64,000 bases of DNA, from positions 663 to 64,662 of the forward strand of contig JBEKNC010000010.1 of NCBI GenBank assembly GCA_049523215.1, read 5' to 3'. The stretch is from Bacteroidota bacterium. Its GTDB lineage: Bacteria; Bacteroidota; Ignavibacteria; UBA10030. Position numbers and translations under genes: made by a program. The notes under the pieces were generated by a model. It saw only the letters and a list, made by a program, of their open reading frames with translations. It was not told the origin of the DNA and did no database searches. Below are positions 51,811 to 58,392 of this stretch, piece after piece; position 1 is the first letter of the stretch, and every line of letters begins with the position of its first letter.

Positions 51811-51916
51811 CGGTTTTGTGATCGTGTCAAGAGCTATATATGGCATTTTTCCGGAGAAAAAAAATGATTCAATCAACACTTGCGGAATTCAAAAACGAGA
51901 AGTATATTGTGAACAG

Positions 51917-52336
51917 ATGAAATTGGGGCAAATATATTTTTTTGCTACTGCCATTCTACTGTTTGTTTTAACGGGAATGGTACTGGCACAAAGCAATCCT
52001 ATTATCACAACAAAAGTCGAATCTTTTGTTGGTTATATTAGGGTGGAATGGACGATTAATTCAGAAGCGGGCATCGATCATTATGAAGTATGGAGAAGTA
52101 GTGGAAGTTCCGTTCCTTTGTGTGTTGGAGTCGTACCGCATGGAGTTCTTTACTTTGATGATAAAACCACCAGTTTGTATAAGACAGAAGATCAATATTT
52201 TATCTATCAGGTGAAAGCTGTAGGAGGTCCCAATGGATCCGTCCTAGGCCAGAGTGACAATAAGGGAATATACTTTATGAGCCCTAGTTCTACATACAAA
52301 CGCACTTGGGGTAGTATTAAGGCGATGTTCCGATAA
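51917..52336 (+). CDS. Exported hypothetical protein (Fn3-like) with C-terminal TWGSIKAMFR motif
   Basis: Signal peptide from ATG 51917; VEW...YEVWRS beta pattern. Confidence 0.75.
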   Translation: MKLGQIYFFATAILLFVLTGMVLAQSNPIITTKVESFVGYIRVEWTINSEAGIDHYEVWRSSGSSVPLCVGVVPHGVLYFDDKTTSLYKTEDQYFIYQVKAVGGPNGSVLGQSDNKGIYFMSPSSTYKRTWGSIKAMFR

Positions 52337-52405
52337 ACTATTGTTTATAGAGAATCTTGAATAAGCGAGCATTATGCGTCGCTTTTTTTGTTTTTGGACC
52401 TCCTT

Positions 52406-53005
52406 ATGAGACCTTTGATTCTTGCATCTCAATCACCTCGTAGAAAAATTCTACTGAAGCAGATTGGGTTGAAGTTTCGTGTTATCCCGAGTCATGTCTC
52501 GGAAGTATTATCTCCGAACCAATCACCCGGTGATAATGCAAAACGCATTGCAATTGATAAAGCTTCTGAGGTCGCCGCCCGTCTGAAAAAAGGGATTGTG
52601 ATCGGAGCAGATACGATTGTTGTGCTCGATCATCATGCCCTCGGCAAACCGACATCCAAAGATGATGCGAAGCGGATGTTGAAACTGTTGAGTGGACGTG
52701 AGCATTCGGTATACACCGGCTTTGCTTTGATCGATGTGGAATCGAAGAAACACGTAGCAGGAGTGGAAGAAACAAAAGTACGATTCCGCAAGCTGGATGA
52801 AAAAGAGATTGTTTCCTATATCGATTCAGGATCGCCGATGGATAAGGCAGGCTCGTATGGAATTCAAGATGATTTTGGAGCCGTCTTTGTCGAAAAAGTG
52901 AATGGATGTTTCTATAATGTTGTTGGATTTCCTCTTGCTCGTTTTTATTCGACGTTACAGCGATTTATTGCTTACTTGGAATTACAGAATAAAACGAAAA
53001 CATAA
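52406..53005 (+). CDS. maf: Maf nucleotide pyrophosphatase
   Basis: [24 protein letters not shown]. Confidence 0.95.
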
Positions 53006-53007
53006 CG

Positions 53008-53412
53008 ATGAAACGAAAGATACGAGTCCTTATTGCCAAAGCCGGATTGGATGGTCATGATCGTGGAGCGAAGGTCGTCGCTGCGGCATTGCGGGATGTC
53101 GGATTTGAAGTGATTTACTCGGGACTTCGCAAAACAGCGGAAGCGATCGTGGAATCCGCATTGCAGGAAGATGTCGATGCGATCGGTGTGAGCCTGTTGA
53201 GCGGTGCACATATGACGATCTTTCCCAAAATACTGCAGATGATGAAAACGAAAGGGATGGAGGATGTGCTTCTCTTCGGCGGAGGAATCATTCCTCAAAA
53301 AGACATTCAAGAATTGAGGAGTATGGGAGTGGGTGAGCTTTTTACACCGGGGACTACAACCGAAGACATCGTTCGTTATCTGCGTACATGGAACATGGAC
53401 CACCAACGTTAG
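53008..53412 (+). CDS. Methylmalonyl-CoA mutase cobalamin-binding subunit
   Basis: [20 protein letters not shown]. Confidence 0.93.
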
Positions 53413-53413
53413 T

Positions 53414-53459
53414 CATCGCAAAACCCGGCGATGAAAAATCCTTGACGGGTTTTGCGATG
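53414..53459. terminator. 14-bp inverted repeat between convergent genes
   Basis: CATCGCAAAACCCG / CGGGTTTTGCGATG. Confidence 0.7.
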
Positions 53460-53470
53460 TAAAAGATCTC

Positions 53471-53674
53471 TTAAGTGATCTTTATGACTTTAACGGCCTG
53501 CAAGCCTTTTTGTCCCGTTTCAACTTCGAATTCTACTTTGTCGCCCTCCTTGAGCGTCCTGTAGCCGTCTCCGCTGATGGACTTGTAATGCACGAATACG
53601 TCTTCACCAGTTTCTCGTTTGATGAAACCGAATCCTTTTGAATTGTTGAACCACTTGACTGTACCCTGTTCCAT
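53471..53674 (-). CDS. Cold-shock protein
   Basis: GTVKWFN..KGFGFI, DVFVH. Confidence 0.96.
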
Positions 53675-53947
53675 ACGGGTTCGTCCCCTTGATACATTGA
53701 ACATCACACCGCTACTTTGTCTTTCAACGAAAAAGATGCATTGGATGCTACACCTTTATTGCTCAACCCTAACACAATTCTTAGGTGAATCGACTCATTT
53801 GAGCCACACGAACAAATTCACCAATGCCAATGTGATAGTGAAAACAAATTACGATGAAACAAAACCGGTGCATTGAATTACTTCAGAATATTACAATTTG
53901 GTATATTAAAATGCAAGTGTCGGCGGTGGGTTTTTCGTTTTATCGAA

Positions 53948-56299
53948 TTATTCTCTTTCAGCCAGCCAAATACCGTAATCCTCGGTGTCCGGTTTACTCT
54001 CTGCTGTTTCCGGTGCGACTTTACGCTCGAGAATGCGGATGCCTTCATCGGAAAAACCGAATATATCATCTAAAGAAAGAATGCGATCGAGTGCGGTCGG
54101 TTCAAAAAATTCCCGGAACTTATTTACTGCTTCATGCAGCTTTGCAAAGTAGTAAGCGACGTTTTCATCGGCTCCCAGAGGATCCCAATCTTCAACCAAA
54201 CGTGAAGAACGAGCAACATCGGCATCCGTCTCAGTTCCAGAGATATAGTACGAGAGCCTGGTATTCGCTTTGACAAAGAGACTTGAACGAACCGCTGCTT
54301 CCAATGCTGGAGAAGGCGTAATCCGACCAGCAGCAATTTCTTTCTGATATGTCTCCGTATCCATACGTAAAAATTCTGTTTTACAGAAGTCCATGGGAGT
54401 CCAATTGTGTTTTACAATCTGAGTATAAGCGGTTGCGTATGCATGATGTAATCGTGTTAGATCGTTCATAAGCATGCATTCAATGAATCGCTGGATGAAC
54501 ATTCTTAAATAGCGTTCCATGCCGCGTGATATGAGACTATTTCCTTTGATGAGGACATTGTTGTTTTGATCAAGCACTGCATAGTTACTTTTCCTGTAAC
54601 TGAGCATCTTCTTATAATGATGTGACGACAGAAGAGTGATACCACCGGGGAGAATGTTCGAGAGCCGATCTATGAAATTTTTCCGGTTCGCCTCACCGAT
54701 AATATTATCCGGCAATAGAAGGAAGAATCCTTGACCGTCAGTTTGGATGATGGTGGCATTAAAGAGTTCGATTTGATGTATAATCTCTTTCAGAATTTCT
54801 CTGCTCGCAGTAAGTACGGTTTCGGCTTGATCCGGATCGTTGTAAAGGCCTTTTGCGTAGCCAAGGGAGAGATGAAAAGAATCGAGCAGACGTTTCAGTG
54901 AATTCAACCGGGCATCTGGGTTTGTGCCTCGCGATTGGATTGCATGCTTTTGGCCGAGTGTTTTTTGCTGCAAAGAAGTGAGACTTGTCAGGAGCGAGAG
55001 AAAAACATCGAGATCATCTGTTCTGGGCTTGATGTTTTGACGGAGGATCATAGAGGGATATAATCCCTCGAGTTCAATATAGAGGACGTCGGAAAAGACA
55101 CCGATGTGAAAAATCTCTGCCGGGATATTGATATTGCGAGAACCTTCCATGGGTTTGGGAACCGAATGTTTTTGCCGCACGTATTCTCTCAACATGAACG
55201 ATTCGATGCGTGAAGCCGCGGCGGTATGGATGAGCATTCTGAAGTTGAATGGACACATCTGAGCAAGATAAAAGAGTGGAGGCAGAAGTAAGTTGCTGAG
55301 CTCACGTACAATGAGAGCATTTTGCAGAGATTGAACTGCCACTTGCTTCGGTGTACGTTTCCATTCTTTCATCACTCGATGGGATGGAAGAGCATGTTCT
55401 GTACCAATAGGAATACCGAAATGTTTGGCTAATGAAATCAAACTGAATGATTGCTCAACTCTCTTGGTGTTCATTTCTGTTTCTGCAACCGTTATGGTGT
55501 CCACGAGGTGTCTGCCGAAAACATCGTATGAAAACCACTCGCTTTCACCGAGTCCAGCAGTGCTAAACCCACTCGGTGTCCGCATATCGCTGCCGCTTCT
55601 GCCGACAGCAAATGTTATTTGCTGTCGTTCGCAGGCACGACCGAGAGCCGGAAGGATCGTTCCGAATAAATCATATCCCTCAATAACGTCAGGATCAATT
55701 TCGTTGATGTGCTGAATACATTGCTTCAAGACAACCTGTTCGTTTTGTTTGGGCGTTTTCAGGATATATTTGTTCCCATCACTTGTGAGAAGTGTGATGA
55801 CGAGAATGTGTTCTTCCATGCTCTTACTGCTTCGTTTCTTTCCTGTTGCAGGTGCACATTGAACATCGATATGAAGACGTACCAGATCTTCAAATTCCAT
55901 CCCTTTGAACAATGTTATTCCGGATTGCAAGAGGAACTGGCGTACCGGATCGGCACGAACCAGGATTTCTTTTAACTCCTGATACGATGAGATACGCGGC
56001 GAATGGCTTTTATTGTATTGTCGAAGAATGAAGTGTACCGCTTCCCACATTTCACTCCAGCGGGAGAATGCTGCAATGAACTGATAGAAGTTGTTCCCGG
56101 CAAGCTTCTTCAACCAGAATTTTTTTGGGAATTCCTTGATAAGCGCTTCGTCCGTCAGAAAAAAGAAGGGGAAGAATTCCACATCTCTGTGTAGAATCTT
56201 CCCCTCAACTCGCTTGAACAACCTGATCGTCTGATCGTTCAACTGCTGGACGGCAACAATGCGCTCTTCAGGATTATGTCCGTAGAGCAATGAGTCCAT
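53948..56299 (-). CDS. Family B DNA polymerase-like protein with degenerate catalytic motifs
   Basis: DPDVIEG exonuclease region, LYPS, LKRLLDSF, SYRKSNY; DTD replaced by DGQ. Confidence 0.8.
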   Translation of the reverse strand: MDSLLYGHNPEERIVAVQQLNDQTIRLFKRVEGKILHRDVEFFPFFFLTDEALIKEFPKKFWLKKLAGNNFYQFIAAFSRWSEMWEAVHFILRQYNKSHSPRISSYQELKEILVRADPVRQFLLQSGITLFKGMEFEDLVRLHIDVQCAPATGKKRSSKSMEEHILVITLLTSDGNKYILKTPKQNEQVVLKQCIQHINEIDPDVIEGYDLFGTILPALGRACERQQITFAVGRSGSDMRTPSGFSTAGLGESEWFSYDVFGRHLVDTITVAETEMNTKRVEQSFSLISLAKHFGIPIGTEHALPSHRVMKEWKRTPKQVAVQSLQNALIVRELSNLLLPPLFYLAQMCPFNFRMLIHTAAASRIESFMLREYVRQKHSVPKPMEGSRNINIPAEIFHIGVFSDVLYIELEGLYPSMILRQNIKPRTDDLDVFLSLLTSLTSLQQKTLGQKHAIQSRGTNPDARLNSLKRLLDSFHLSLGYAKGLYNDPDQAETVLTASREILKEIIHQIELFNATIIQTDGQGFFLLLPDNIIGEANRKNFIDRLSNILPGGITLLSSHHYKKMLSYRKSNYAVLDQNNNVLIKGNSLISRGMERYLRMFIQRFIECMLMNDLTRLHHAYATAYTQIVKHNWTPMDFCKTEFLRMDTETYQKEIAAGRITPSPALEAAVRSSLFVKANTRLSYYISGTETDADVARSSRLVEDWDPLGADENVAYYFAKLHEAVNKFREFFEPTALDRILSLDDIFGFSDEGIRILERKVAPETAESKPDTEDYGIWLAERE

Positions 56300-56302
56300 T
56301 CA

Positions 56303-57073
56303 TCATTTCTGCAGTTTGTCCATAGTCATAAACGGTCTCAACAAATCGATAGGCACGGGGAAAATGGTGGTGGAGTTATTCTCCGTGGCAATTTCGCGAA
56401 GTGTTTGCAGATATCGCAGCGTAAGGGCGCTTGGCTGTTCGCTTAACACTTTTGCCGCATCTGAAAGCCGCTGTGATGCCTGAAATTCACCTTCCGCCGC
56501 AATGACCTTGGAGCGGCGTTCGCGCTCGGCTTCTGCCTGTTTCGCCATTGCCCGCTGCATTTCCTGCGGCAGATCGATCTGTTTCACTTCAACATTGGAT
56601 ACCTTCACGCCCCACGGTTCTGTGTGGCTGTCGATAATTTGCTGAAGCTTCTGGTTGATCTTGTCGCGCTGTGAAAGAAGATCATCTAATTCGGATTGTC
56701 CTAATACGCTGCGTAACGTTGTCTGTGAAAGCTGGGATGTAGCGAACAAATAATTTTCAACAGATACTACGGCTTTTTCCGGCTGCATCACACGGAAGTA
56801 CACGACAGCATTCACTTTAAGCGAAACGTTATCCTGTGTGATGATATCCTGCGGCGGAACATCCATGACGACCGTTCGCAGACTCACTTTTACCATTCTA
56901 TCAATACCGGGCCATAACCAGACAATTCCGGGTCCTTTTACTCCCAATAGCCGTCCTAAGCGGAATATGACACCGCGATCATATTCACGCAAAATTTTAA
57001 TTGAATTGACTGCGAGAAGAAAAATGGCAAATCCCAAAAGAAATATATATATAAATCCTGGTTCCATAGTCAC
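56303..57073 (-). CDS. SPFH/slipin (stomatin-like) protein
   Basis: [29 protein letters not shown]. Confidence 0.95.
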
Positions 57074-58362
57074 TCCTTTGATATTGTGAATGGTTCGACT
57101 AACAATTTTAATCCGTTGATTCTAACAACTCGTATACGATTACCTTTTTCAATTGTTCCTGACAATGATTCTGCATTCCAGAACTCTCCATTTACACGAA
57201 CGACACCTTCTGGTTTCAGTATTTCGACAACATCTCCACTCTGTCCAATTAACCCTTCAACGCCTGTTGTTGGCTTTCGGCGTTGAGCTTTTACCCCCAA
57301 TCCGATGATAACGACAAAAAAGAATGTGGATATAATGACCGATGCAAGGATGACCGACCAAGATATTTCTACAAACTCAAGAACACTTGATGTGCGAATA
57401 AGCATAATTGATCCTAGAAAAATTGAGACAGCCCCGCCGATTGCCAGCATGCCGTGGCTGATGATTTTTATCTCCAAGAGGAAGAGAATAATGCCAAAGA
57501 TGATAAGCGCAAGTCCGGCATAGTTAATTGGCAGAGTGTGCATAGAATAAAAGGCAAGTACCAAACTGATTACCCCAACGATGCCGGGGAAGATAGAACC
57601 CGGATTGTACAACTCGAGTATCAAACCGATAGTGCCGAGTTGAAAAAGAATGAGGGCGATATTCGGATTGCTCAAGAGATCCAATAATTTTTCCGCCCAT
57701 CCCATTTCCATTTGTTCAATCCGTGCACCTTTCGTATGGAGTGTTGTTGTGCCGCTGATTGTCTCAATTTGTTTGCCGTCAATTTGCGTGAGCAATTCAT
57801 CAACATTCTTCGCAATGAGATCGATAACATTTGTGTCAAGCGCTTCTGTTTCCGTAATAGCTTGGCTTTTACGGACAGCATCTTCTGCCCACTTCAGGTT
57901 GCGGTTTCGTTTTTCGGCGATCGTACGGATAAAAGCGGCAGCATCATTGGTGACTTTTTCGCCCATCACCGAATCCATTTTCCCTTCCATTTCCACAGGA
58001 TGGGCAGCGCCGATGTTTGTGCCCGGAGCCATCGCTGCAATGTGTGCCGCCATTGTAATAAAAACACCAGCCGAACCTGCATGCGCTCCGCCTGGAGCAA
58101 CATAGACCACGATGGGAATTTTGGATTCAAGTATTGCACTCACAATGATACGTGTAGATGTAAGCAATCCGCCGGGTGTGTTCAGTTGGATGATGAGACA
58201 TTCCGCGTTTTTTTCAGCAGAACTTACGATGCCGCGTTCGATGAAAGCCGATGATGCCGGATTAATAGCACCATCAATTTTCAGCAATATGACTGATTGT
58301 GAAAATGTGACAGTGGAAAGAAGAATAAAAAGAAATATGAGAACGTTGATGCGGTGGAGCAT
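57070..58362 (-). CDS. nfeD: NfeD membrane-bound serine protease
   Basis: LNTPGG, AGSAG, GTNIGAA, C-terminal OB domain GEFWNA; start ATG 58362 behind GGAGG. Confidence 0.92.
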
Positions 58363-58392
58363 CGTTGATTCCTCCATCCGGTATGATTGTTT

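Follow-up and report, generated by a model that had tools for sequence, protein, structure and literature searches.

A full-length family-B DNA polymerase homologue with both active sites degenerate, retained at a conserved locus of Ignavibacteria-like bacteria

Why would a bacterium keep a full-length gene for a DNA polymerase in which the residues of both active sites have been replaced? The question is raised by one gene, here called polB*, in a 64,000-nucleotide (nt) stretch of a Bacteroidota genome assembly (GCA_049523215.1; Ignavibacteria, UBA10030; contig JBEKNC010000010.1, positions 663 to 64,662), which is referred to below as the window and to which all coordinates refer. The gene is as follows:

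53948..56299, minus strand: polB*, a 783-amino-acid (aa), full-length homologue of the family-B DNA polymerases (PolB), group G3, both active sites degenerate

The open reading frame (ORF) starts at an ATG and, as an earlier note, made from the sequence alone, had stated, is intact over its 783 codons. The same note proposed that the gene is retained for a non-catalytic role, and the loss of catalytic residues, the ratio of non-synonymous to synonymous substitution rates (dN/dS), the predicted fold and the conserved locus all support this proposal. In the reading that we favor, and that we hold to be probable though well short of certain, polB* is an exapted, catalytically inert PolB that would use the surfaces it has retained and its C-terminal motifs to bind DNA and a partner, and would serve as a scaffold or regulator.

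The gene product is a genuine PolB homologue, not a chance resemblance. In a phmmer search of PDB sequences, residues 24-652 match Thermococcus/Pyrococcus PolB (E=1e-22), and a family profile retrieves Thermococcales PolB (B3) at 1e-61, Pol zeta/Pol alpha at 1e-25 and E. coli Pol II at 5e-20. Homology is established by these comparisons with the PDB because the matches in a Pfam and NCBIfam scan of polB* were weak, all being sub-threshold or local. The Pfam models DNA_pol_B and DNA_pol_B_exo1 score 14.6 and 14.5 bits, under the gathering cut-off of 23, which fits the degeneration of the motifs described below, and both Pfam domains are present in relatives at 38-44% identity. A structure model, one of the checks proposed for the idea of retention, indicates that the complete PolB fold is kept: the AlphaFold2 (AF2) model, built from a 97-sequence alignment, has a local confidence score (pLDDT) of 83.8 and a predicted template-modelling (TM) score (pTM) of 0.81, all five PolB domains (N-terminal, 3'-5' exonuclease, palm, fingers and thumb) are confidently predicted and in PolB order, and Foldseek aligns the model to full-length archaeal PolB (E=1e-37, TM up to 0.72-0.75, ~790 columns, ~19% identity).

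As the Thermococcales enzymes are the best solved relatives, transfer of an archaeal B3-like gene was considered; it was rejected, since phage matches and a motif-C glutamate both point to bacterial PolB group G3. When the intact relative P0077 was searched against 50,697 phage genomes, the only matches were to phages of Salinibacter (38.7% identity, 5e-130) and of Nostoc/Anabaena; the PolBs of these phages are the sole non-bacterial G3 members (Kazlauskas et al., 2020, PMC7544198 section 17). In addition, the active relatives carry a Glu two residues before DTD (E-x-DTDG), a synapomorphy of G3/Pol epsilon N and B10. On these two grounds, polB* is placed by its sequence relationships in G3. 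G3-type relatives were found in Ignavibacteria, Kryptonia and Rhodothermales, and polB* is 37-44% identical to the intact, active-type orthologues at the same locus. The relatives had earlier been treated as paralogues, with archaeal PolB2 as the frame of reference; they are instead orthologues at one locus, in a bacterial group. Pol epsilon is absent from the best 60 family-profile matches, so that a deeper kinship of the group with it would be tentative.

Among the PolB groups of bacteria G3 ranks second in abundance (Timinskas et al., 2026, PMC12926913). Surveys describe it as uncharacterized, with both its exonuclease and its polymerase site conserved and with a beta-clamp motif; the latest of them presents it as a high-fidelity, clamp-using polymerase (PMC12926913). 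The family, the canonical N-terminal/exonuclease/polymerase architecture and the motif-C Glu of the active relatives all agree with the published G3 description (PMC7544198; PMC12926913). Nevertheless, polB* is a G3 member with both sites lost and therefore departs from that description: in the clade to which it belongs both active sites are gone, and in a large sister group the exonuclease site alone. As for the beta-clamp motif, polB* has a conserved QxxLF-like DD[IL]F sequence and a GIWL tail, for which a clamp role is suggested by resemblance.

Motifs were placed by phmmer alignment to PDB sequences and by a family alignment of 113 full-length homologues, with the following result:

55856..55873, minus strand: ExoI remnant, residues 143-148 HIDVQC; consensus D-x-E reads D-V-Q (Thermococcus PolB FDIET, polB* IDVQC; D kept, E to Q)
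55643..55681, minus strand: ExoII remnant, residues 207-219 EGYDLFGTILPAL; N to D, catalytic D to I (Thermococcus PolB YNGDNFD, polB* YDLFGTI)
55307..55333, minus strand: ExoIII remnant, residues 323-331 QSLQNALIV; Y to Q, D to N (Thermococcus PolB YSMEDA, polB* QSLQNA)
55043..55078, minus strand: motif A (region II), residues 408-419 IELEGLYPSMIL; D409E, S412G (Thermococcus PolB DFRSLYPS, polB* ELEGLYPS)
54857..54898, minus strand: motif B (region III), residues 468-481 LKRLLDSFHLSLGY; K kept, N to D, Y to H, G to L (Thermococcus PolB KILANSLYG, polB* KRLLDSFHL)
54722..54751, minus strand: motif C (region I), residues 517-526 IIQTDGQGFF; G3-type Glu to Q, first Asp kept, second (metal-binding) Asp to Q (Thermococcus PolB SDTDG, polB* TDGQG)

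In these alignments polB* lacks the DEDDy exonuclease signature (ExoI DxE, ExoII Nx2-3FD, ExoIII Yx3D) and likewise the polymerase signature, which comprises DxxSLYPS in motif A, Kx3NSxYG in motif B and DTD with both Asp residues in motif C. The substitutions that the earlier note had listed for ExoI, ExoII and regions II, III and I are all present in both the PDB and the family alignments. For ExoIII the reported degeneracy stands, but the region is not unrecognizable, as the alignment places QSLQNA there.

In a scan of one genome per species, a relative was present in 249 genomes, and the 80 best loci were used for locus analysis. All 80 come from different assemblies, with one copy per assembly, nearly all of them metagenome-assembled genomes (MAGs) of Ignavibacteriota or Bacteroidota from sources that include peat, fen and groundwater. 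No second family copy was found in the same assembly among these loci, and weaker paralogues or other PolB groups may exist elsewhere in the genomes. At all 80 loci, polB is convergent with the gene for the B12-binding MCM subunit (MCM-B12) and with maf; therefore, the polB genes at this shared locus are orthologues.

The catalytic columns of these proteins were scored into three states: intact (E+P+), exonuclease-dead (E-P+) and dead at both sites (E-P-), the last of which includes the polB* clade. Column counts were made over 50 E+P+ and 77 E-P+ sequences, i.e., 127 polymerase-intact proteins, and over 58 members of the polB* clade. The polymerase catalytic columns (D, K, N, D, D) are invariant in 50/50 E+P+ and 77/77 E-P+ sequences, and in the E+P+ set each of the ExoI D and E and the ExoII N and D is likewise present in 50/50. 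In the polB* clade, the ExoI E column holds Q (54/58), and the two ExoII columns hold D (56/58) and I (57/58). The motif A Asp, present in 127/127 polymerase-intact proteins, is replaced by Glu in 53/58, the Ser column by Gly in 53/58, and the steric-gate Tyr varies among Y, H and F. Within motif B, the Lys is kept in 47/58, the Asn column is D in 49/58, the Tyr column is H in 52/58, and the Gly column is L or I. The G3 Glu of motif C, carried by 123 of the 127 polymerase-intact relatives, is Q in 56/58, and its loss is thus derived within G3. The first Asp of motif C is kept in 55/58, while the second, D in 127/127 polymerase-intact relatives, is D in 18, R in 12, Q in 10, N in 6, E in 5 and H in 4 of the clade. 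Alignment with active relatives, which had been proposed as a check, thus finds catalytic residues lost at both sites.

In a neighbor-joining (NJ) tree, E+P+ forms are basal, E-P+ forms are nested within them, and a large E-P- clade, made up of the polB* clade and very divergent dead forms, stands beside the E-P+ group. Together with synteny and the similarity of neighboring genes, the tree supports an order in which the exonuclease was lost first and the polymerase second. On this order, the ancestor was an active G3 polymerase of the Ignavibacteria-like lineage at the same chromosomal locus; its 3'-5' proofreading site was lost first, and the polymerase site then in the ancestor of the polB* clade. 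An E-P+ form in an nfeD-SPFH-polB arrangement is present in DYFT01000054.1 (locus L123), a MAG labelled Ignavibacterium album, so the cultured species may serve as a model of the intermediate state.

Other polymerase-dead lineages are scattered elsewhere in the tree, including P0140 and P0142. These two show the opposite partial loss, with ExoI-III intact and motifs A-C degenerate, and could be stand-alone proofreading exonucleases. They are of interest because Chlorobi, in which every species has a G3 PolB, are reported to have no canonical DnaQ proofreader (PMC12926913).

A simple alternative is that polB* is a pseudogene in slow decay, its frame kept by chance. The lost catalytic motifs and the sub-threshold Pfam scores would be expected under decay, and polB* does outpace Maf in its clade (dN ratio 1.5, compared with 0.6 in intact forms). 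However, pairwise dN/dS (NG86) between polB* and close orthologues is 0.10-0.18, not near 1, and so does not indicate the decay that such a value had been proposed to reveal; across 26 independent pairs of the dead lineages (dS 0.13-1.6) the median is 0.120, with a range of 0.095-0.151. The length of the protein is held to 779-785 aa in more than 50 distinct members of the clade, down to 56% identity, and further full-length dead forms are found at 29-47%. Two of these, P0149 (29%) and P0137 (33% identity), are full-length ORFs in the same nfeD-SPFH-polB*-csp context, and more divergent dead relatives, in which motifs A-C are unrecognizable, still keep the locus and the C-terminal tail. Stretches of very high conservation (0.81 in the N-terminal domain) also speak against decay, as does transcription in situ: contigs of four peat/wetland metatranscriptome runs, 92-99% identical, cover polB*, SPFH, nfeD and csp, at uneven depth and as supporting evidence only, DNA carry-over being possible. 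The gene is thus kept by purifying selection and probably transcribed in situ, and the pseudogene reading, to which we give almost no probability, was rejected on the intact frame, dN/dS and length conservation. In CAVYRP010000008.1 (L005/L017; P0033, 703 aa), tblastn splits polB* near residues 45-70 into two pieces that overlap; this has the look of a frameshift, for which sequencing error is one possible cause.

The dN/dS medians of the other two states are 0.099 (E-P+) and 0.050 (E+P+), and the values for maf, MCM-B12 and nfeD are similar to those of polB in the same pairs. The series 0.05, 0.10 and 0.12 across the states was rejected as a measure of relaxation, as the neighbors' omega (dN/dS) rises too and dN(PolB)/dN(MCM-B12) goes the opposite way. 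Because of this rise in the neighbors, we claim only strong constraint, and no quantified relaxation.

Where this constraint falls is informative as to what the dead protein may still do. Mean pairwise identity was computed for each domain and compared with the group mean, which is 0.66 for the polB* clade, 0.32 for other dead forms and 0.54 for intact forms:

N-terminal domain: polB* clade 0.81, other dead forms 0.44, intact forms 0.46
Exonuclease domain: polB* clade 0.58, other dead forms 0.25, intact forms 0.58
Fingers: polB* clade 0.44, other dead forms 0.14, intact forms 0.53
Thumb: polB* clade 0.67, other dead forms 0.39, intact forms 0.51
C-terminal tail: polB* clade 0.65, other dead forms 0.28, intact forms 0.25

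In the dead forms, the N-terminal domain is the most conserved part and the fingers the least. K or R occupies 32 positions in at least 85% of the sequences of each active group; the polB* clade retains 22 of these positions, including those of the thumb and palm and the Lys of the KxY motif. The positions lost include two on the first fingers helix (Q444 and L448 in polB*); in Thermococcus PolB the putatively corresponding helix carries the triphosphate-binding R460 and K464. Three retained motifs stand out:

54575..54598, minus strand: KxY motif (primer-terminus binding in PolBs), residues 568-575 YRKSNYAV, retained
54053..54082, minus strand: C-terminal motif 1, residues 740-749 ILSLDDIFGF; IFSxDDLFGF in the consensus of the family, and similar to the QxxLF beta-clamp motif
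53963..53974, minus strand: C-terminal motif 2, residues 776-779 GIWL, within an acidic tail that is modelled as disordered

Within the polB* clade, the K of KxY is kept in 56/58 and the Y in 54/58. In the 97-sequence alignment F747 of motif 1 is invariant, as are I777 and W778 of motif 2; the variable position of the motif 1 consensus is Q in L037 and L056. GIWL is kept even in the most degenerate dead forms, and both C-terminal motifs are conserved in all three states. AF2 gives residues 764-783 a pLDDT below 50. Overall, constraint has moved off the fingers and exonuclease and onto the N-terminal domain, thumb, KxY and the two C-terminal motifs. Such a pattern is what would be expected if nucleotide binding and catalysis were gone while DNA binding and at least one protein contact were kept.

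On our favored reading, then, polB* most likely no longer binds or adds deoxynucleoside triphosphates, and would be kept for a function exerted through the N-terminal domain, the thumb/palm DNA-binding surface with KxY, and DD[IL]FGF and GIWL. Most likely polB* would bind primer-template or duplex DNA without catalysis, along with a partner that is probably the beta sliding clamp, and could thereby act as a scaffold, placeholder or regulator in the manner of the inactive C-terminal half of Pol epsilon or of ImuB. The C-terminal module of Pol epsilon is a complete PolB fold with degenerate exonuclease and polymerase sites and a structural role (PMC7544198; PMC2669801). polB* likewise combines a full fold with dead sites and may share this mode of action; it is, however, a stand-alone bacterial protein, whereas the module of Pol epsilon binds CMG and forms one polypeptide with an active PolB. 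ImuB and iPolY of the bacterial mutasomes are also dead bacterial polymerase homologues kept as hubs for the clamp and partners (PMC12926913); these, however, belong to the Y family, and ImuB shares an operon with DnaE2, its catalytic partner, while polB* has neither a polymerase nor a repair gene next to it.

Several points weigh against this reading. The replacement residues are fixed in the clade (E409, G412, D473, H476, Q519) and most members keep the Lys of motif B and the first Asp of motif C; this could mean a site that is remodelled rather than empty. G3 PolBs are biochemically uncharacterized as a whole group. The NJ tree is a distance tree only, in which the dead forms may have been drawn together by long-branch attraction, and lineage and divergence time confound any contrast of omega across the states, the neighbors' values being elevated in the dead lineage too. 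A clamp-binding role of the C-terminal motifs is suggested by resemblance only, and most members lack the Q of QxxLF. Finally, archaeal PolB2, once called inactive from its sequence, proved to be a working translesion synthesis polymerase (PMC7544198 section 15; PMC8764526). For the same reason, PolB2 serves poorly as the precedent for an inactivated PolB that the earlier note had seen in it, and in view of its history we do not take the inactivity of polB* as proven.

It is therefore worth weighing a remodelled active site in polB*, in which E409, D521, D473 and H476 would jointly bind metal or nucleotide for a weak or specialized nucleotidyl transfer, such as lesion extension or Mn-dependent synthesis, with archaeal PolB2/Dpo2 as a parallel. 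The conservation of E409 (53/58), G412 (53/58), D473 (49/58), H476 (52/58), Q519 (56/58) and D521 (55/58) in the clade would suit such a site, as would the retention of KxY and most DNA-contacting basic residues, the strong purifying selection, and the precedent of PolB2, itself wrongly called inactive (PMC7544198 section 15; PMC8764526). By contrast, the Asp that is lost is the second of DTD, invariant in the 127 polymerase-intact relatives and here free to vary, even to Arg, which puts a positive charge in the metal site; in PolB2 and piPolB it is the first Asp, not the second, that is missing (PMC7544198). Moreover, the fingers and conserved K/R positions are relaxed or lost, the steric-gate Tyr alternates among Y, H and F, and the divergent dead relatives have no recognizable motifs A-C at the same locus and with the same tail. 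We consider a remodelled site unlikely, though it is the least unlikely of the alternatives.

The resemblance to archaeal PolB2 and bacterial G2 extends to a disrupted exonuclease, atypical polymerase motifs and a prediction of inactivity. In PolB2, ExoIII is missing and so is the first Asp of motif C; a D(K/R) motif compensates, and a His is conserved (PMC7544198 section 15; PMC8764526). polB* differs in that its ExoIII region aligns, the first Asp is kept and the second lost, and motif C has no His, and its profile is closest to B3-type/G3. The PolB2/G2 features are thus not found in polB*, the D(K/R) motif not having been the object of a specific search. A PolB2-like rescue by relocated acidic residues was also considered and rejected: the acidic residues fixed in this clade alone are conservative D-to-E changes (163, 395 and 409) and a few surface positions, among which no obvious substitute for the second motif-C Asp is found when they are compared as sequence columns rather than in 3D.

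The genes next to polB* on the same strand are:

56303..57073, minus strand: SPFH/Band-7 (stomatin-like) gene, 3 nt upstream of polB*; Pfam Band_7 2e-39
57070..58377, minus strand: nfeD, long NfeD1b/STOPP type, which heads the cluster; a ClpP-like domain at the N-terminus is followed by a membrane domain and, at the C-terminus, an OB domain
53471..53674, minus strand: csp, a 67-aa cold-shock-domain (CSD) protein, ~270 nt downstream of polB*

The junction of SPFH and polB* reads AAA TGA TGA ATG, and nfeD overlaps SPFH by 4 nt; the nfeD product matches Pfam NfeD1b_N, NfeD_membrane and NfeD, with NfeD-domain E-values of 1.5e-21, 2.7e-24 and 7.9e-17. The nfeD-SPFH-polB operon that had been proposed is real and its spacing is conserved across the clade: the SPFH-polB gap is exactly 3 nt at all polB* clade loci and ranges from -26 to +114 nt in ~48 loci with SPFH. 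The nfeD-SPFH pair and csp go together, occurring around E-P-, E-P+ and some E+P+ orthologues. Both are absent from one large E+P+ clade, which has mostly lost the tail Trp too, and the G3 genes of Kryptonia and Rhodothermales are without nfeD-SPFH. The arrangement is thus old within the Ignavibacteria-like lineage and predates both losses; therefore, it cannot have caused the dead state, nor does it by itself explain it.

A further reading, compatible with the exapted and inert PolB that we favor, is that polB* acts within a membrane-associated NfeD-SPFH (stomatin/STOPP-type) module with which it would be co-transcribed. The hydrophobic GIWL tail could, for example, be a ligand of the OB domain of NfeD or a substrate of its ClpP-like protease, so that membrane or envelope stress would be coupled to DNA metabolism. 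The upstream pair is that of typical NfeD-SPFH (STOPP-stomatin) operons, a long NfeD and a Band-7 protein in overlapping frames, but here a polymerase gene is attached. The 3-nt interval between SPFH stop and polB start at every clade locus argues for such a module, as do the persistence of the arrangement in dead forms of 29-33% identity and the clade without nfeD-SPFH, which has mostly lost the tail Trp (SIEFDD and similar) and csp. Yet the linkage predates inactivation and is common to fully active orthologues, the Rhodothermales/Kryptonia G3 PolBs do without nfeD-SPFH, and MCM-B12, Maf, EamA and DUF362 are equally syntenic, so conservation of gene order alone may explain the adjacency. The correlation of tail and SPFH amounts to essentially one phylogenetic split, with L047, L071 and L073 as exceptions, and our literature search found no paper linking NfeD-SPFH with a DNA polymerase. 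We therefore regard a role within this module as rather improbable. A stronger version treats nfeD-SPFH-polB(-csp) as one unit, in which an inert DNA-binding PolB, as a client or effector dedicated to the NfeD-SPFH membrane complex, would be held, released or cleaved at the membrane via the conserved GIWL tail and would link envelope or cold stress to the control of replication or repair. This is more doubtful still; if true, it would join a stomatin-type module to a protein derived from a polymerase, a pairing not known before. A defense island was also considered and rejected for want of a meaningful PADLOC match: only part of a "homing endonuclease" profile was matched, probably by a polymerase-derived stretch, and nothing for SPFH or NfeD. 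A literature search for "Ignavibacteria" with "family B DNA polymerase" likewise found no paper.

Several observations on the locus may be added. The intact clade without nfeD-SPFH/csp (L053-L066, L068, L074, L081, L083, L085, L086 and L088) has the tail SIEFDD or PSI[FQRS]LDT in place of GIWL, a correlation that has the exceptions L047, L071 and L073 and rests on about one phylogenetic split. In PLMS01000065.1 (L002/L013), the stop-to-stop ORF with polB* is 1021 aa long and continues into the SPFH frame; its match to polB begins only at residue 21, and that to SPFH covers only 237/256 residues. An SPFH-polB* fusion is one explanation, an assembly error at the 3-nt junction the other. When the window is compared with L001/L012, its nearest relative, dS is 0.13 for polB* and MCM-B12, 0.20 for maf, 0.39 for SPFH and 0.50 for nfeD (window 56303-58377 compared with 52388-56299), an unevenness which suggests that closely related strains have recombined within the nfeD-SPFH segment. 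The csp gene, being under the 80-aa size of the ORF list, is absent from it; it is called as a CSD gene in L092 and L093, and in one run (X27) its metatranscriptome depth exceeds that of the rest of the region. In run X25 (record 1), the csp region and the polB* 3' end stand on one metatranscriptome contig that lacks 132 nt of the spacer (window 53737-53868), which indicates a strain variant with a shorter spacer and one molecule spanning csp and polB*. On the plus strand, window 51818-52336 encodes a 172-aa hypothetical protein with an N-terminal hydrophobic stretch; it is 44-58% identical in most genomes in which the neighbors are 82-97% identical, and is thus fast-evolving and probably exported.

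Inactive PolB modules, such as that of Pol epsilon C, and dead bacterial polymerase hubs, such as ImuB and iPolY, are already known. What appears to be new is a widespread, stand-alone, doubly inactivated clade in G3, with exonuclease-dead intermediates at the same locus; neither inactivated members nor such a clade is mentioned in the text of PMC7544198 or PMC12926913, whose supplementary tables are only partly searchable. Annotation pipelines name these genes "DNA polymerase I / archaea type", which overstates the polymerase repertoire of bacteria that are widespread in peat, sediment and groundwater. One orthologous locus displays an ordered series, from intact through proofreading-dead to fully dead, and the dead form has been kept through a long radiation. 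The series offers a natural experiment in the conversion of a replicative-type polymerase into a pseudo-enzyme, with matched active orthologues as controls, and polB* would be a bacterial equivalent of Pol epsilon's inactive half.

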